Assembly (NCBI GenBank): GCA_004322275.1 | Contig: SCTA01000027.1 | Location: 880-64,879, forward strand | Source of the DNA: a bacterium | GTDB taxonomy: Bacteria; Desulfobacterota; Deferrisomatia; Deferrisomatales; BM512 | Length of the DNA: 64,000 nucleotides | Direction of reading: 5' to 3' | Shown here: positions 10,225 to 35,897 of the stretch, one piece after another | Position numbering within the stretch: position 1 is the first letter of the stretch | Layout of the letters: every line of letters starts with the position of its first letter | The notes under the pieces: generated by a model | Told to the model about the DNA's origin: nothing | Database searches by the model: none | Seen by the model: only the letters and a program-made list of their open reading frames with translations | Position numbers and translations under genes: made by a program

Positions 10225-11466
10225 CTAGACCTGTGCCCCCTCCGGGGATGCGCCGCCTGTAGTGAGGTCCCTGTTTTTCTTGAAGGGGCCGGAGATAAGC
10301 TTGCCGGAGGGAAAATACTCTCTTTTAATCGCCGAAAAGACGGTTTCCGGCTCTATCGCCAGCATGCAGTCGGGTTTGCGGCAGCCGGAGAGCTTCCTGT
10401 TGGTGTTGGTCAGGCAGGGGCTGCAGTGCGGTTTCGTATAGAAAACCACGTCGCTTTTCCCCACCGGCCCGTACAGGAAAGGGGTGTTCGGCCCGAAGAG
10501 GCCGACTACGGGGGTTCCCATAGCCGAGGCGATGTGAACCGTAGCGGTGTCGTTGGAGACGACCAGTTCGGCCCTGCGGCAAAGCGCGGCGAGCCCCTTT
10601 ACGGAGAGTTTGCCCGCGGCGTTGAAGGCTGTGCTCTCGCTCGCCGCCACCACGTCGTCAATTATCGATTTTTCGCCCGGAATGCCGGTTACCAGGGTTT
10701 TGGCTCCGAATTCCCGGAATAATTGCGCGCTGAGGTATCCGAAGCGCTCCGAGGGCCACCTGCGTATCGGCAGGTTGCTGCTGGAACCGGGATGCATCAC
10801 GACCATCACGTCGGAGGGCGAGATGCCCGCCTCTTTTTCGAGGGCTGCGGCTTCGGCCATGTGACTGTCCGTCAGGTCTATCTCGCGCTCGGGGTTGTCC
10901 GGGGAAGCGCCCGCGGTTTCGGCGAGCCTCATGAAGATCCGCCACATATGGGCCGTTTCCTCGTAAGGTACGGCTTTCGTGTAGACCTTTACTCTGGACG
11001 GGCCGTGCGCGGCGAAACCGACCCTCTCGGGCGCGCCGAGCAGGGCGCTTATCAGCGTCGAGATGTTCGCGAACTGCTCGAAGTCTATAATCAGATCGTA
11101 ATTGGCGGCCTTTAAAACCGGCAGGGTTTTTTTCATTGAAAAAAGGAAATCCACGATCGTGTCGGAAGCGAGAAAGTGGCTTTCGTGAAGGCCCTTCGTG
11201 CCCGCCAGTATCCCTTTGTTGGTGTCAAGGGTCAGGAAGTCTATCCGCGCCCCCGGAAATCTCTTACGCAGGGCTCGCAGCGCCGGAAGAATCATGACGA
11301 TGTTGCCGATGCCGTGAAATTTGATGAGGAGAATGTTCTTTACCTCATCGGCGACCGGACGGGCCTTCTTCGGGGAAGGCAAAAGCAGCGGAGCCGTCCT
11401 CAAGAGGAGGTTGCCCAGCAAACTGTCAAGAAATCTGGCGAAACGTAATTCGGAGTCTCTTTTCAA
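10225..11466 (-). CDS. glycosyltransferase family 9 (heptosyltransferase-like)
   Basis: ILLIKFHGIGNIVMILPALRALRKRFP at the N-terminus and ELVVSNDTATVHIASAMGTPVVGLFGP at the C-terminus are typical GT9 motifs. The TTG start is uncertain. Confidence 0.85.
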   Translation of the reverse strand: MKRDSELRFARFLDSLLGNLLLRTAPLLLPSPKKARPVADEVKNILLIKFHGIGNIVMILPALRALRKRFPGARIDFLTLDTNKGILAGTKGLHESHFLASDTIVDFLFSMKKTLPVLKAANYDLIIDFEQFANISTLISALLGAPERVGFAAHGPSRVKVYTKAVPYEETAHMWRIFMRLAETAGASPDNPEREIDLTDSHMAEAAALEKEAGISPSDVMVVMHPGSSSNLPIRRWPSERFGYLSAQLFREFGAKTLVTGIPGEKSIIDDVVAASESTAFNAAGKLSVKGLAALCRRAELVVSNDTATVHIASAMGTPVVGLFGPNTPFLYGPVGKSDVVFYTKPHCSPCLTNTNRKLSGCRKPDCMLAIEPETVFSAIKREYFPSGKLISGPFKKNRDLTTGGASPEGAQV

Positions 11467-11766
11467 TTTTTCATACCATAAAAAAATACCGCAAGAATGG
11501 AACCGAAATAGTTATCACTTCCCGGCAAAGGTAGCCAGATGTTTTTAGCGGCGGGGAAGGCGTAAAGCGCATGACCGCACACTTTTAAAAAATTATGGAA
11601 CAAGGTCGCCTTATCCGTTGTCTGCTGTAATCTATTTATAAGGGTTAAGTGGAAATAACCAGCAATCTTGGAGGCTTTTATCAACGGAGATGTCATGACC
11701 GCAGACGCCTTAAGGAAATTTCGCAGTGAAAAACGGTTTTGATACCGGAAACCCCGGAGCAGTCCG

Positions 11767-30216: not shown

Positions 30217-30292
<76 letters not shown>

Positions 30293-30662: not shown

Positions 30663-31058
30663 TTAGTACTCTCCGGGGAATACGATAGAATTGGCAACAC
30701 ACGAAAAACTGTCAATTTTTTCTCCTGTCCTATTGTCATAAACATATAAAGAAGGAATAAAAACATTAAAGCTAGCATTGCAAAACTGGTTTACAACTGG
30801 ATGCATTATTTCATCCCTTTTTGTGTAAGGAATATTTTCATATTCACTACGGTTGTTTAAATATATTCTAAGATTGCCACCACCTTTAAGTATATAATCT
30901 GCATCAAAATACATATTATTGTTTTTCAATGCAGCGATTACCAAAGGCTTAATCTTTCTCTTCTGGTCATTGCTTACAAACGTAAAACTACCCGGCAAAT
31001 ACGGCATAGTTTGCGCCACTATAGTCCAAATAATAACTATAATAGTTAAAATGCCCAT
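30663..31058 (-). CDS. island cargo: small membrane-anchored protein, unknown function
   Basis: ATG at 31058 preceded by ggaggg 7 nt upstream. N-terminal TM helix MGILTIIVIIWTIVAQT. The coding sequence is strongly AT-rich. Confidence 0.55.
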   Translation of the reverse strand: MGILTIIVIIWTIVAQTMPYLPGSFTFVSNDQKRKIKPLVIAALKNNNMYFDADYILKGGGNLRIYLNNRSEYENIPYTKRDEIMHPVVNQFCNASFNVFIPSLYVYDNRTGEKIDSFSCVANSIVFPGEY

Positions 31059-31174
31059 ATTAATTCCCTCCAAAGAATTGCAAACGGCAATAAGGCGACG
31101 TTCCGACGCACAGCGACCGAACGAGCTTGTTTTTCATGGCCGCCCCTCCCTCGAATGAGATTACGGCAAGAATA

Positions 31175-31399
31175 TTAGCGCGTAATGCCGATTTTGTCAG
31201 AAACTTCTTTGCAACCGTCGCCCATGCCTTCAAAACCCATCCGAAAAGGCCACAAAGCGCACGTTTTTGAGGTGCAGAACGCGACTTCGTGAACCGACTG
31301 CATACAGTGGACGCAAAATTCCCGTATCGCCGTTTTTCGCGTCAAAAGCCGCGTTTTCTTGTTCCCGCCAACTGTCAGAAAAGTATGTTTAATTGCCAT
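31175..31399 (-). CDS. small Cys4 zinc-ribbon protein common in phage/island modules
   Basis: ATG at 31399 with aggggg SD. The motif is CVHC..(x11)..CTSKTCALWPFRMG. Confidence 0.6.
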   Translation of the reverse strand: MAIKHTFLTVGGNKKTRLLTRKTAIREFCVHCMQSVHEVAFCTSKTCALWPFRMGFEGMGDGCKEVSDKIGITR

Positions 31400-31751
31400 G
31401 ATTTTCCCCCTGTCTTTTCTGCTCCCTGTCAACATCCGCCCAGGCTATCCCTTCGGCCTCTTCGCGTACCCTCTTGTTCGGCCCCTCCATTGCGCTCCAT
31501 ACGACAAGCTGCCAAAGCTCAAGCCGCCAGCCTTCAAGCCTCTTGTAATCATCCGGGCGCGTGATGCTCTCGGGGGTCGGGTAGGGCTTGGGGCGAAGGC
31601 TTTTCTTCAGTTCGTCTTTTTGAGCCTTCACCTTTTCGACAAGTTCAGAGGGTAAGGGGTGATCAGCTACGATCCACAAGCGGTCACCTTCAAGAATGAT
31701 TGCGCCGCCTTCGGCCTCCACCTCTTCAAAAAGTTCCTTCACCGTGTTCAT
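31389..31751 (-). CDS. island hypothetical protein
   Basis: ATG at 31751 with gggagg SD, overlapping the DUF3631 stop (ATGA). No motif recognised. Confidence 0.6.
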   Translation of the reverse strand: MNTVKELFEEVEAEGGAIILEGDRLWIVADHPLPSELVEKVKAQKDELKKSLRPKPYPTPESITRPDDYKRLEGWRLELWQLVVWSAMEGPNKRVREEAEGIAWADVDREQKRQGENHGN

Positions 31752-33265
31752 ATTGATACCTCCCATCCACCCTTTTTATCTGCAACACCGCCACAACCCG
31801 CGCCAGTGGCGGGTTTTGGCGTTGCGTTTTGGTTTTCGTTTTCGCAACGTGTCGGACTATCCGCAACAGGTTTTTCCGCTTGGGAGTAGGGTTGTGTAAC
31901 TGTGGCGGATATTTCAGGGGGTGAGGTGAGATAACGAGAAAAAGCCTCTTTGAATTGATCGAGAGTGAAACCCTTGGGAGTGTTCCCGTACCCTATTCTG
32001 ATTGTCTTAGATATGATTCCGTATTCCTTTAGGCGGGAAGAAACCTGCCGGGGTGAAATTGGCTTGCCCCTGTTATAGGTTGCCCACGATTTTTCATCGT
32101 CGGCGCAAAGGGCTTGAATCAAATCCGCCGTGCTTATCTTGTCAGCTCTCTTCGCGTCGAATATCTCCTGAATGTCGGCAAGTAGTTCAGTCCCTATGCT
32201 TTGGAGCGGACTTTCAGCGCCGGAAAGCGTAAGGGCCGCTCTCCGGGCTTTGTCTGGCCAAATACCGCCAGCAATATCGGCAATGGCTAATAGCGGCTCC
32301 CAGTTGTCTTGCGCTCTGTCGTGGAGACTGGCCGGGAGGTCAGGCCGCGCACTTCTAACGGCTTCGCGGCAGTCTTCCGCGCATCGGGCCAACCTTGACG
32401 CCAAGGAGGGGAAAAGTCCGGTTTCCGCATAACGTAACCGCTCTGTATTTTCATTGGGAAGTTTCCGGCGCAAAACCAGAGTGATTGAACGATCCATAAT
32501 GGTATCGGCAAGGTGGCCGATACCGGACAGGGCTTTCGCCCCCCATAAGCTGAAACGTGTAGGGGTGTGGTTGTCTCCAACCGTTCTTATCGTATAGGCA
32601 CTGCTTCGCGTGTGACCGGCGTTTACTATCCCACGCAACTCCTCATTGTCCCGCATGAAGGCGTCCACCTCATCGATAAGGAGTGTCGGGCTCCATGCGT
32701 CAATGGTTCGGAAAAATGCCGCCGGGCTTATGTTGCTCGCCATTAACGGCTTACACACTACCTGTTGAAGGAGAGTAAGCAGCTGTGTTTTTCCGCATCT
32801 CTTTTCAGGCGCGGTAATGACCGCAAAGGGGGCAACCTGGACAACATCGATGAACCATGTGAAGGCAACCCAGAGGGCTGCTGCGTCCGCCGTCTCTTCG
32901 GCGCATACAATAAACCGGCGGACAGTTGCCGAAAGGTCGGAAAGGAGGGTTGAGAGGTCAACAGGATCGGGCCACGGCTCAACCTCGTCAAAGGTTATGT
33001 TTCCCTTTTCCTCTTCGCCTTTGGCCCCTCTTACAAGCCGGTCAAGGGTTGAAACCTGAACGCCAAGTTTTTTAGCTTCCTCCTTCCTTACCCTGTCGTA
33101 ATCGAATGGAGAAAGATCGGAAAGCCTTTTTACTTCCTCTAGATCGCTTGAGCGGCTTTCAATATTGGCCTGTAACGGGTTTTCGTGAGGGGTTGAGGGT
33201 TCTTGCATAGGAGCCCCCAGAGTATCAGCGTTGGGGGCTTCGCCGTTTAAGGGGTTCATGTTCAA
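31748..33265 (-). CDS. DUF3631 domain P-loop protein (island replication/primase-associated family)
   Basis: Walker A APEKRCGKT and Walker B TLLIDEVDAF. LRGIVNAGHTR, LADTIMDRSI and DNWEPLLAIADIAGGIWP resemble DUF3631. Confidence 0.8.
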   Translation of the reverse strand: MNMNPLNGEAPNADTLGAPMQEPSTPHENPLQANIESRSSDLEEVKRLSDLSPFDYDRVRKEEAKKLGVQVSTLDRLVRGAKGEEEKGNITFDEVEPWPDPVDLSTLLSDLSATVRRFIVCAEETADAAALWVAFTWFIDVVQVAPFAVITAPEKRCGKTQLLTLLQQVVCKPLMASNISPAAFFRTIDAWSPTLLIDEVDAFMRDNEELRGIVNAGHTRSSAYTIRTVGDNHTPTRFSLWGAKALSGIGHLADTIMDRSITLVLRRKLPNENTERLRYAETGLFPSLASRLARCAEDCREAVRSARPDLPASLHDRAQDNWEPLLAIADIAGGIWPDKARRAALTLSGAESPLQSIGTELLADIQEIFDAKRADKISTADLIQALCADDEKSWATYNRGKPISPRQVSSRLKEYGIISKTIRIGYGNTPKGFTLDQFKEAFSRYLTSPPEISATVTQPYSQAEKPVADSPTRCENENQNATPKPATGAGCGGVADKKGGWEVSI

Positions 33266-33269
33266 CCCC

Positions 33270-33470
33270 TTACGCTTCGGAGGTGGATTGCTTTAGGTTC
33301 GCCTCGATGAAGGCTTTAATGTCTTCCGGGCGATAGCGGACACAAGCGCCGGATATGCGGACGTGCTTGGGGCCTCGCCCCTGGACGCGCCATGCCTGTA
33401 AAGCCCTTGGGGTCAGGTTCAGAAGTGAAGCGGCTTGCTTTTCATTAAGGAGAGAGTTTTGTGATTCCAT
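33270..33470 (-). CDS. AlpA-family helix-turn-helix DNA-binding protein / excisionase
   Basis: 66 aa. LLNEKQAASLLNLTPRALQAWRVQGRGPKHVRI....RYRPEDIKAFIE is the typical AlpA/Xis fold pattern. Confidence 0.85.
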   Translation of the reverse strand: MESQNSLLNEKQAASLLNLTPRALQAWRVQGRGPKHVRISGACVRYRPEDIKAFIEANLKQSTSEA

Positions 33471-33558
33471 TGCGTTTTGCCTCCATAACTTTGGTTTACG
33501 ATATGAAGGCGATTCTATTCGCTGGCTAATGATGAATATAGGAAGCGAAAATAGAAAT

Positions 33559-34338
33559 TTACTTCCGTAATTCCTCTTTTAACTGCGTTAAATAATTTCT
33601 AGCAGCTTCTAAGACTTCTTTAAAAACCTCTTCTCCCATCTCATCTTTACGGAAATCCCCCTGTGCTGGTTTTATGAAAATTTCATGAATATATTGTCTT
33701 ACTGTACGATCAGTAATGCCGTATTTTTGTCCGACTTTTTCATCTGCATATTCTCCCTTTAATCTTTTATCCCTGCGCATTTGCATCGCTTCATTAGCAA
33801 TTCTCAGTTTTATGTCAAAGCTATTAAATTTATTTATTTCTTTTTGTCCAATTTCAAGTGATTCATTCATGTACATTGCGATTGGTGTTTTTGTAATTGC
33901 CTCACAGGAATACAAAATAAATTTTTTAGCATCCTCTGGCAATTTAATATCTTTGCCCAGAGGTCTTACATATAAGCCAGATGGCAAGATAATATCTGCG
34001 CCTAGCTGTAGGGAAACAATCTGGCTCGTAGCGTTCCACATAAAAAGTGGATTTCTTGTACCTTCGTATCGCTGTAGAAATACGCTTATATTAAGTGCCT
34101 TAATTAACACAATTCTTAGTACTTTGTAATTGTGTAGTCTAGCTTGTAACATAGTCTGTATAACTGTATTCATATAATGCGCAATGGTATTATCTGTAGC
34201 GGTAATTATGTTTTCGTAGCTATCAAATTCATTGTATTCAATTGTAAGTTCTTCAATCATGCTTTTTGCGATTTCTTTTATGATTTCGTTTGCAATTACT
34301 TCGTACTTTTTTTTAAATTCCTTCAAATATTTGCCCAT
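33559..34338 (-). CDS. island cargo: AT-rich 259-aa protein with a C-terminal HTH-like segment, unknown function
   Basis: ATG at 34338 with ggagg SD 5 nt upstream. EKVGQKYGITDRTVRQYIHE looks like an HTH. No other motif recognised. Confidence 0.65.
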   Translation of the reverse strand: MGKYLKEFKKKYEVIANEIIKEIAKSMIEELTIEYNEFDSYENIITATDNTIAHYMNTVIQTMLQARLHNYKVLRIVLIKALNISVFLQRYEGTRNPLFMWNATSQIVSLQLGADIILPSGLYVRPLGKDIKLPEDAKKFILYSCEAITKTPIAMYMNESLEIGQKEINKFNSFDIKLRIANEAMQMRRDKRLKGEYADEKVGQKYGITDRTVRQYIHEIFIKPAQGDFRKDEMGEEVFKEVLEAARNYLTQLKEELRK

Positions 34339-34400
34339 TTAATCCTCCGCTTCCGGTAAGCCCACGCTCTAAAGTCTCAAAATTACGGCCTTCTAGAAGC

Positions 34401-35633
34401 CTATTTAATTAGCCTCAAGCCTTGCGCCGCTTCCATCATTCTCTCGCCGTGGTCTTCAAGGGCTTTCCGCGCCGGGTCTTCGCCCAAGCGGGCGTAAATG
34501 GCCGTTGTAGAGGGTTGCGTATGGCCTAGAACCTTGCCGATCAGCGGAAGGCTTGCGCCGCTTGTGGCAAGCCAGCTTCCAACCGTGCGCCTTAGATCGT
34601 GAAGGCGTACATCTTCAAGTTCCGCCTCTTGGCGTATTCGTCGCCAACTCTTCCCTATGTTGACGAGGTGCGTTTTTTCCTTCCTTCCGGGGAATACATG
34701 GGGGTTGCCCTCTTCTCTTGGAAGTTTGTCAAAAAGAGCCTTTGCAGGGGCGCTCAGGGGTATGTAGTGGACGCGCCCCGCCTTGGTGTCAGGTAGCCTC
34801 AGTTCATTGCGCTCAAAGTCAAGGTCTTCCCACTTGGCGTTAAGAAGCTCGCTTTTTCTCGCCCCGGTAAGGAGGTAAGCGAGAATCAAGGCGCGGATAT
34901 AAACATTCGGTTCTTTGTTGATTGCTAGCGCCAGTTTCGGCAACTCTTCGGGCTTTATCCATCTATCCCGCTTTACCTCCCGAAAGGTTTGAACATCCCG
35001 CGCCGGGTTACTGTGTGCATCCGGCAAAAAACCCCACTCCCGCGCCTTCTCAAAGAGAACCGACACAAGGGCAAGAACGCGGTTCGCTTCATATTGCCCG
35101 CTTTCTCCTATCTTGTGATGAAGGGAGGCAACGTCAGAACGCCTAATAGCCTTGATTTTGAGAGTTCCCCAAGCTGGCAGTATATGGAGCTTGATTCGCC
35201 GCTTGTCTTCCTTGCCGGTCTTCTTTTGCGCCGCATGGCGCTCAAGATATGCCTCGCAAAGTTCGGATATATTGCGGTCGTCTTTCTTCCTTTCACGGTC
35301 AGCTAAAGGGTCTACTGGATCAGCGTTAAGCGCATCGGCTGTTGCTATTTTGCCTCCAAGTGCCTTGGCCGCTGCCCTTGCTCCATCTAGGGTGAGGGTA
35401 GGGTATGGTGTATCAAACTGTATAAGACGTTTGCGCCCTTCAACTTCATACGCGAATACCCAAACCTTCTTGCCGCTTGGATACACCCTTAAACCAAGCC
35501 CCGTAGCGTTTAAATCCCATTTTACACAACGGGGTTCTATTCGCTTTCCTTCTGAGTCGGTTTTTATCTCGCATTCATATTGGAATGACTGAACAATCTT
35601 TTGAGTTAGCTGGACTGCGTTACGCCTTGCCAT
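34401..35633 (-). CDS. int: tyrosine-type site-specific integrase (P4-like, N-terminal DUF4102-type arm-binding domain)
   Basis: N-terminus with GLGLRVYPSGKKVWVF. Catalytic region with ARKSELL (R), HDLRRT (H-x-x-R) and LGHTQPSTTAIY (H, Y). Confidence 0.9.
   Translation of the reverse strand: MARRNAVQLTQKIVQSFQYECEIKTDSEGKRIEPRCVKWDLNATGLGLRVYPSGKKVWVFAYEVEGRKRLIQFDTPYPTLTLDGARAAAKALGGKIATADALNADPVDPLADRERKKDDRNISELCEAYLERHAAQKKTGKEDKRRIKLHILPAWGTLKIKAIRRSDVASLHHKIGESGQYEANRVLALVSVLFEKAREWGFLPDAHSNPARDVQTFREVKRDRWIKPEELPKLALAINKEPNVYIRALILAYLLTGARKSELLNAKWEDLDFERNELRLPDTKAGRVHYIPLSAPAKALFDKLPREEGNPHVFPGRKEKTHLVNIGKSWRRIRQEAELEDVRLHDLRRTVGSWLATSGASLPLIGKVLGHTQPSTTAIYARLGEDPARKALEDHGERMMEAAQGLRLIK

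Positions 35634-35847: not shown

Positions 35848-35897
<50 letters not shown>

Follow-up and report, generated by a model that had tools for sequence, protein, structure and literature searches.

An AT-rich orphan gene between integrase and alpA of a small tRNA-borne island: a likely DNA-binding protein and candidate excision regulator of the iolg/icg type

Small islands composed of an integrase, an alpA-type gene and a replicase are widespread carriers of defence and other cargo genes, and include the PICMIs (phage-inducible chromosomal minimalist islands), the phage-inducible chromosomal islands (PICIs), P4-like elements and integrative and mobilisable elements (IMEs). How such islands sense a helper and trigger their excision is poorly understood in Gram-negative bacteria. 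A compact element of this kind lies in the 64,000-nucleotide stretch of contig SCTA01000027.1 (assembly GCA_004322275.1, Deferrisomatales) that is referred to here as the window. It spans 5,655 bp between exact 50-nt direct repeats of the 3' part of tRNA-Thr(CGT), and between its integrase gene (int) and its alpA-like gene it holds an AT-rich open reading frame (ORF) of 259 codons, ORF259, which is the subject of this analysis. An earlier note, made from the letters of the window, had singled ORF259 out as an orphan that encodes either a helper-sensing regulator or a single-gene defence or interference determinant. The genes and borders of the island are:

33559 to 34338, minus strand: ORF259, AT-rich gene of 259 amino acids (aa) in the slot between int and alpA, of the integrase-contiguous gene (icg) type (ORF list)
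34401 to 35633, minus strand: int, tyrosine integrase (Pfam Phage_integrase, E 5.1e-26; Arm-DNA-bind_3, E 7.7e-11)
33270 to 33470, minus strand: alpA-like gene, 66 aa, HTH_17 of the AlpA/excisionase type (PF12728, E 8.2e-9)
31748 to 33265, minus strand: DUF3631 P-loop protein, the presumed island replication protein (PF12307, E 1.7e-49)
30663 to 31073, minus strand: orf136, a second AT-rich orphan of 136 aa with a hydrophobic N-terminal segment, at the tRNA-proximal end
30243 to 30292, plus strand: attL, the 3' 50 nt of tRNA-Thr(CGT)
35848 to 35897, plus strand: attR, an exact copy of attL (50 nt, 100%)

The ORF list and the sequence confirm the gene as the earlier note had described it. ORF259 has 259 codons and starts with ATG in the context GGAGG-ATTAA-ATG, which places a Shine-Dalgarno (SD) sequence 5 nt upstream of the start. 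The stop of int at 34401 leaves a same-strand gap of 62 nt to the ORF259 start at 34338, and alpA starts (33470) 88 nt downstream of ORF259. The GC content of ORF259 is 33.3% (29% at third codon positions, GC3), compared with 56.4% for the whole window, 52.1% for int, 54.7% for alpA, 53.0% for the DUF3631 gene and 56-60% for the flanking host genes, i.e. about 20 points under the island core. The reported AT-richness is thus plain when set against a core of 52-55%, while the further statement that it is unlike even the rest of the island does not hold, as orf136 matches ORF259 in this respect (33.1% GC); no third island gene is so AT-rich.

Among 5.8 billion clustered proteins, a word-indexed search returned ORF259 itself and nothing else. 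Exhaustive phmmer comparison with 1.84 billion cluster representatives revealed P0002, a protein of 211 aa that is 45% identical across residues 79-259 (E 3.5e-26), and a profile search added P0003 (233 aa) as a second relative. Both are about 40% identical to ORF259. No relatives were found in IMG/VR, in GTDB genome contigs or in JGI metagenome contigs, nor among 60 host relatives, 400 genomes from the host's phylum, or phage and plasmid records, and a conserved 24-nt DNA block of the family had no match in metagenome contigs. The weak profile hits that recurred in the 400 phylum genomes (E ~0.002-0.008) were rejected, because they fall on the BFD-like [2Fe-2S] domain of NifU, in which 'CECFGVTDRQIRRAI' resembles 'YGITDRTVRQYI' by chance. 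This domain ('CECFGVTDRQIRRAI') is a trap for searches with an ORF259 profile and was encountered at loci L025 and L028-L032 (genomes G004, G014, G310, G016, G008 and G018).

Between the three members, nonsynonymous divergence (pN) amounts to 0.27-0.38 per site and synonymous divergence (pS) to 0.67-0.75 per site (saturated). With pN far under pS, the ORF259 frame is under purifying selection, and lack of conservation, which the earlier note had named as a way in which its proposal could fail, does not apply. ORF259 is a real, conserved and extremely rare gene. Its description as an orphan at the sequence level stands as well: Pfam, NCBIfam, PADLOC and the PDB gave no match, so that no characterised family claims it, and the protein collections searched hold two relatives. 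The coding DNA of these homologues is just ~66% identical between their loci, L006 and L007, and both genes are AT-rich too (GC 40% and 38%, against 47-57% in their neighbours). Because relatives at ~40% identity are likewise AT-rich, the low GC content is a long-standing property of the family and not a sign of recent import.

Three segments of the protein stand out in the alignment of the family:

33682 to 33741, minus strand: codons 200-219 (EKVGQKYGITDRTVRQYIHE), core of a C-terminal helix-turn-helix (HTH; three-member alignment, AlphaFold2)
33805 to 33867, minus strand: codons 158-178 (NESLEIGQKEINKFNSFDIKL), possible second HTH-like motif, family-conserved, tentative owing to a low predicted local distance difference test score (pLDDT)
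34027 to 34059, minus strand: codons 94-104 (TRNPLFMWNAT), the top-conserved motif of the N-terminal helical part (alignment)

Within the HTH, residues G203, Y206-G207-I208, D210-R211-T212, R214-Q215 and I217 are invariant in all three members, giving the signature G-x-x-YGI-x-DRT-x-RQ-x-I. The motif T-x-N-P-L-F-M-W-x-A-T is equally invariant and was matched to no known motif. Further conservation is seen in P-x-D-x-K-x-F, in S-L-x-I-x-Q-K-x-I of codons 158-178 and in a C-terminal helix of the form LEAA...L..L.EE.RK, while the first ~80 residues and two insertions vary. The HTH is the sole recognisable feature: no enzymatic, toxin or membrane domain was found in ORF259, and neither Pfam nor NCBIfam has a family for it. 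In P0002, the counterpart of codons 158-178 matches GerE/LuxR below threshold (E 0.0029; 17.6 bits, cut-off 23.5), and the protein scores 13.5 bits against Sigma70_r4 (cut-off 24.1); both values lie below the Pfam thresholds, and ORF259 itself matches neither family. All PHROG matches are sub-threshold as well (E>0.003). Only phrog_836, 'late transcriptional activator', was seen in more than one member, namely in two of the three, with E 0.0032-0.043 over ~40 residues of the HTH (profile positions ~79-122 of 133). Pfam Mor gave no match even at E<=10.

The AlphaFold2 model is all-helical with a mean pLDDT of 49.6 from the single sequence and 46.7 from the three-sequence alignment, and it is confident (pLDDT 74-88) for residues ~175-222 and nowhere else. 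This region is the HTH and includes EKVGQKYGITDRTVRQYIHE, the segment near the C-terminus in which the earlier note had seen an HTH-like pattern. Foldseek with this model, which is poor for fold assignment, found nothing under E 1 in the PDB; its compact alignments were to small HTH domains alone (TnpE 2rn7, homeodomains and the DNA-binding domain of DnaA). A profile of the C-terminal domain likewise found nothing in the PDB. Sequence matches there to AcrIIA26 (E 2.4) and to designed helical repeat proteins (E 0.03-0.6) were rejected as products of helical, low-complexity composition. Judged by the modelled HTH, ORF259 likely binds DNA.

In related mini-elements, the genes of both relatives immediately precede an alpA or xis-like gene. 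The L007 homologue begins 10 nt past the 3' end of an int gene, of which the last 20 codons are present (85% identical to int of the window), and the beginning of an alpA-like gene comes next. The int gene of L007 appears to be truncated by insertion of an insertion sequence (IS), or else this short contig is chimeric; an IS110-family transposase gene (3-1050) ends 17 nt before the last 20 int codons. The alpA-like ORF of L007 diverges after ~19 codons. Downstream of the L006 homologue come a different small xis-like ORF, an ORF that has only its first ~12 codons (MNPLNGEAP) in common with the DUF3631 gene of the window, and a winged-helix protein in place of DUF3631. Two short stretches of L006 (1391-2217) match the island beyond this point, namely 38 nt with 95% nucleotide identity to window positions 33233-33270, which cover the first ~12 DUF3631 codons, and 54 nt with 87% identity to 31409-31462 at the overlap of orf125 and orf86. 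Between them, L006 encodes a 57-aa ORF and the winged-helix protein, and no DUF3631. This suggests that L006 is an even smaller mosaic relative, with modules exchanged at short conserved junctions.

The non-coding DNA on either side of ORF259 is part of this conservation:

33534 to 33561, minus strand: 28-nt block TAAATTTCTATTTTCGCTTCCTATATTC, starting with the ORF259 stop codon, near-invariant in all three family elements
34339 to 34400, minus strand: spacer between int and ORF259, with a -35-like TTGAGA and, behind the int stop, a weak hairpin

With up to three mismatches allowed, the downstream block has no second copy in the window. On the upstream side, positions 34361-34402 are conserved with L006 110-151 (blastn, 84% over 42 nt). 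Because both flanks are conserved despite the module swaps, ORF259 travels as a cassette together with its flanking non-coding DNA. The spacer contains a terminator-like hairpin (34387-34401), although its fold is not significant (z -1.0). An own promoter of ORF259 in these 62 nt is not convincing, as the -10 position reads ACCGGA in the window; the counterpart in L006 looks like a good promoter (TTGAGA-N17-TATAAA).

Candidate control elements of alpA lie downstream of ORF259 and within int:

33513 to 33556, no strand assigned: imperfect inverted repeat TTCTATT(TT)CGC ... GCGAATAGAA, candidate operator before alpA
35535 to 35544, plus strand: the motif's third copy, TTCTATTCGC, within the 5' portion of int
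33479 to 33510, minus strand: predicted RNA hairpin in which the alpA SD GGAGG is paired with an upstream CCUUC

The arms of the inverted repeat (33513-33522 and 33545-33556) are located in the spacer between ORF259 and alpA. The left arm falls in the block that accompanies the ORF259 family, and the right arm overlaps a -10-like TAGAAT (33512-33517), whose -35 element, as read from the sequence, is poor. The motif TTCTATT(N0-2)CGC occurs three times in the 64 kb, each time inside the island, and none of 2000 island shuffles reached three copies. Candidate binders are ORF259, AlpA and Int; the last two are possible because GCGAATAGAA is also present in locus L038, which has a similar AlpA but lacks a homologue of ORF259. 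The RNA of positions 33465-33565 (minus strand, 101 nt) folds with -23.4 kcal/mol (z -3.1), and none of 200 shuffles was as stable. The SD-pairing hairpin is the second hairpin of this leader and is also predicted in L007 (~1812-1841). As the predicted hairpin pairs the alpA SD, whereas a transcript starting after TAGAAT would drop the anti-SD arm, read-through from upstream would not yield AlpA, which suggests that AlpA may be translated from its own promoter alone and not from int read-through.

Related islands were gathered via the DUF3631 protein and via the integrase. Six further int/alpA islands contain one unknown ORF of 190-308 aa that abuts alpA on the same strand:

L014: slot ORF of 262 aa, preceded by a 65-aa ORF
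L016: slot ORF of 241 aa, overlapping int (ATGA)
L018: slot ORF of 251 aa, overlapping int (GTGA)
L019: slot ORF of 190 aa, overlapping int (GTGA)
L038: slot ORF of 201 aa, GC 38.6% against 51%, with four TGGTAACAA half-sites behind it
L040: slot ORF of 308 aa, preceded by HicAB

The overlap with int in three of the six (L016, L018 and L019) measures 4 nt. None of these slot proteins has a Pfam family, and they share no detectable homology with ORF259 or with the others tested; the slot varies between related islands. Two likenesses seen by eye, of ORF259 to the slot proteins of L019 ('VGGWLPDGMADYL') and of L038 ('FYQIS..NPINP' and 'WDADDIKRLF'), were rejected at an hhalign probability of <1%. 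In L020, int leads straight to alpA without a slot ORF. The L038 island (10773-11738) has an integrase that is 59% and an AlpA that is 71% identical to those of the window, and a different AT-rich orphan of 201 aa upstream of alpA. Its four TGGTAACAA/TTGTTACCA half-sites form two palindromic pairs, a textbook operator array. Because AlpA is similar in L038 while slot protein and array differ, such operator-like arrays would seem to go with the slot gene and not with AlpA.

Judged by position, ORF259 is a new family in the already described class of iolg/icg genes, which occupy the int-alpA slot of PICMIs. The likeliest role, to which we give about an even chance of being correct, is that of an icg-type, element-specific DNA-binding protein that targets the alpA excision switch, be it by regulating the promoter or as a cofactor of Int/AlpA. 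The sub-threshold family matches counted in its favour are to DNA-binding or transcription families only. ORF259 would then be a fast-evolving integrase-contiguous gene whose product combines a helical N-terminal part with the C-terminal HTH and with a conserved helix at its end, possibly for dimerisation. In the integrated island, the gene is probably co-transcribed with int, and an int promoter near attR could provide a low, constitutive int-ORF259 transcript. Read-through into alpA would stay translationally silent with the alpA SD paired in the hairpin. ORF259 might bind the inverted TTCTATT..CGC / GCGAATAGAA sites around the -10-like TAGAAT, with the copy in the 5' end of int as a third site, and could thereby set the activity of the alpA promoter or help to assemble the Int/AlpA excision complex. 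A transcript initiated at the alpA promoter would lack the anti-SD arm and would be translatable.

Judged by sequence, this effect could be either repressive or positive. When iolg was deleted in PICMI115, helper-induced excision was abolished, as were packaging and transfer (Barcia-Cruz et al. 2024, PMC10803314), and from this phenotype we lean slightly towards a positive or architectural role of ORF259 over Stl-like repression. Several points weigh against ORF259 as a protein of the excision switch. The PICMI115 deletion was complemented with int plus iolg (PMC10803314), so that a polar effect on int is possible. The family counts three members, the relatives come from two very short contigs, and the placement upstream of alpA is accordingly a rule of n=3. 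A shared slot function is argued from position only, as the slot proteins have no homology to each other, and apart from L038 the other islands contain no clear operator arrays. The 10-mer GCGAATAGAA also occurs once in L038 (8428-8437, just 3' of int), where there is no ORF259 homologue. The structure model is poor (pLDDT 47-50) and gave no fold match, close int relatives carry obvious cargo directly after int, and the AT-richness of the whole family is not explained by the model.

The rival that survives best assigns ORF259 to the cargo of the island, as a single-gene anti-phage, anti-defence or host-modulating determinant acquired, recently or repeatedly, in a variable stretch beside int, whose HTH would serve in sensing or autoregulation. 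The drop in GC content, shared by the likely accessory gene orf136 as its sole peer, would fit such an origin, as would the mutually unrelated slot proteins and the existence of islands such as L020 in which int runs straight to alpA. The region after int is indeed variable among int relatives. In L034 (2064-8865), whose integrase is the closest full-length relative (84% identical), int is followed by a secreted Sel1-repeat protein, with an AAA_15/AAA_21 ATPase and a type I restriction-modification (R-M) system (HsdM, HsdR) on the other strand, and a Logan variant of the same int shows this as well. An MqsA-like toxin-antitoxin (TA) module follows int in L036 (78% identical), and RelB/ParE and a PIN-domain protein follow it in L042 (55% identical, P0014); HicAB in L040 adds to this set. 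The int-adjacent defence hotspot invoked in the earlier note is therefore real insofar as int relatives carry TA modules and type I R-M/AAA_15 genes after int. Yet where cargo is present between int and the slot, as in L038 and L040, a separate unknown ORF still abuts alpA, so that ORF259 is better described as the alpA-adjoining gene. By this evidence, the integrase family holds both a cargo region after int and a single hyper-variable gene adjoining alpA, and the window has only the latter. In PICMIs, moreover, the defence hotspot is located between prim and the target gene, at the up2 site and thus at the opposite end from iolg, which is a core gene (PMC10803314). ORF259 is tied to its conserved downstream block in three elements whose other modules differ, its AT-richness persists at ~40% identity, contrary to a simple recent import, and PADLOC-DB 2.0 contains no defence family matching it at E<=1. 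The defence or interference determinant of the earlier note thus found no positive evidence. We consider a cargo role unlikely, though worth keeping in view, and ORF259 is more likely an excision helper or regulator than an anti-phage weapon. An AT-rich orphan beside an integrase is not automatically defence cargo.

A bolder version of the switch, somewhat more doubtful again than the cargo role, treats the slot proteins, which would be made constitutively, as the input device of minimal int-alpA-replicase islands. Here the HTH would hold the alpA promoter via a private, co-travelling operator, while recognition of a product of the helper phage or helper plasmid would fall to the helical, fast-evolving N-terminal domain and would decide which helper wakes the island; AT-richness would be selected, for instance for silencing or for low expression through rare codons. 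If true, this would give iolg/icg a mechanism.

It is very unlikely that ORF259 plays another core DNA-binding role, be it as an origin-binding or replication partner of the DUF3631 ATPase or as a small-terminase-like, packaging-redirecting protein. A missing partner is conceivable, as the DUF3631 protein of the window lacks the primase domain present in relatives, and weak PHROG matches, each in a single member, were obtained for a DnaD-like loader (E 0.047) and for a small terminase (E 0.14). However, these matches are at chance level, ORF259 is situated upstream of alpA and outside the alpA-to-replicase block, no iterons or tandem repeats were found in or beside it, and L006 retains the ORF259 homologue and the downstream block although its replication module is replaced. 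Scarcely credible, finally, is a chance open frame in AT-rich DNA whose true function would be non-coding (origin, silencer-bound spacer or RNA): the DNA does carry long A/T runs and an ORF of 137 aa is likewise open on the opposite strand, but 259 open codons are unexpected because stop codons are frequent in AT-rich DNA, the SD is good and well spaced, the frame is kept in homologues with pN well under pS and conserved protein motifs, and the lack of tandem repeats and of any Rfam match led to rejection of the origin, iteron and RNA readings.

The integrase has 2486 homologues at E<=1e-40, the named ones from Deltaproteobacteria, Chromatiaceae, Binatia and groups like these. In the DUF3631 protein, neither a primase nor a Toprim domain was detected, while in L014 and L018 a primase is fused to or adjoins DUF3631. 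orf136, for which no family match was obtained, is placed between the replication module and the intact tRNA. This position would correspond to the accessory/defence locus (up2) of PICMIs, and orf136 appears to be a better candidate for island cargo than ORF259. A Cys4 zinc-ribbon protein (C-x2-C ... C-x4-C, then L-W/H-P-F/Y-R-M-G) is encoded 3' of the replicase both in the window (31175-31435) and in L014 (11434-11607), the islands of the window and of genome G151 sharing 41% identity in this protein. No structural or packaging family was matched among the island ORFs, and neither the integrase, the replicase nor ORF259 has relatives in IMG/VR contigs; phage records likewise gave no phage link. 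The host genome measures 2.9 Mb, and the window also carries multihaem cytochrome genes.

Among known regulators, Mor/C of Mu-like phages (phrog_836) have a C-terminal HTH of similar sequence pattern, a resemblance of the HTH only: Mor/C proteins measure ~130-140 aa, the match covers ~40 residues, and neither Pfam Mor nor the PDB gave a match. Closer in genetic context is PIME1, whose excision, replication and transfer depend on int, alpA and a LuxR-family regulator beside alpA (bioRxiv 10.64898/2026.01.12.698999). ORF259 would similarly be a second HTH regulator next to alpA in the region from int to the replicase, and its relative P0002 shows the sub-threshold GerE/LuxR match. In contrast, the PIME1 regulator is divergent from alpA and a true LuxR member, whereas the ORF259 family stays below the Pfam threshold, and PIMEs are ~22 kb in size, conjugatively mobilised and equipped with tra genes.

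The SaPI-type master repressor proposed in the earlier note has to be seen as an analogy only. Like Stl/Rpr of the Staphylococcus aureus pathogenicity islands (SaPIs) and other Gram-positive PICIs, ORF259 is all-helical with an HTH, extremely diverse between islands and int-adjacent, and it is proposed to sit on the promoter of an excision/replication operon. Stl/Rpr proteins also fall in the same size class (~200-270 aa). However, the HTH of Stl is N-terminal and its gene runs divergently to the repressed operon, whereas ORF259 is co-directional with alpA with its HTH at ~175-222 of 259, and ORF259 has no sequence or fold similarity to Stl/Rpr. Unlike removal of a Stl repressor, moreover, deletion of iolg in PICMI115 blocks excision and does not induce it.

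The closest counterparts are the iolg/icg genes of PICMIs from Vibrionaceae (Barcia-Cruz et al. 2024, PMC10803314), which, like ORF259, are single ORFs without assigned function in the int-alpA slot and on the same strand. PICMI115 comprises 6.1 kb with int, iolg (ATGA overlap with int), alpA, up1, prim and up2. A slot gene is nearly ubiquitous in these islands: 21 of 35 PICMI subfamilies have an overlapping iolg and 4 a contiguous icg, while 3 have nothing at this position. The iolg/icg genes belong to 13 unrelated families, their function is unknown, the role of IOLG is posed as an open question, and iolg is apparently expressed constitutively with int (PMC10803314). The 4-nt int overlaps in L016, L018 and L019 are iolg-like, whereas the 62-nt gap in the window represents icg-like contiguity; this likeness is one of position and description. 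The order of target gene, accessory gene, replicase, alpA, slot gene and int is PICMI-like as well, at 5.66 kb compared with 6.1 kb. Of the genes whose co-location defines PICMIs in MacSyFinder (int, alpA and prim), the window has int and the HTH_17 alpA-like gene, and its replicase is a DUF3631 P-loop protein without detectable primase domain, unlike that of PICMIs. In size (5,655 bp) and in the absence of capsid-remodelling or packaging families among the ORFs, it agrees with them. The island thus has the PICMI architecture in size, gene order and lack of morphogenesis genes, but four points stand in the way of calling it a PICMI: no primase domain was detected, it resides in tRNA-Thr(CGT) and not beside fis (an optional marker), its host is not a member of the Vibrionaceae, and IMG/VR contigs and phage records gave no sign of a phage link. 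An HTH and a drop of ~20 points in GC content are features of ORF259, neither of which, to our knowledge, is reported for iolg (PMC10803314). Taken together, the new icg-type family stems from a host other than Vibrio and is set in an island with another replicase backbone, and the window adds to the class of slot genes a recognisable DNA-binding domain as well as a conserved stretch of DNA that travels with the gene and holds candidate binding sites.

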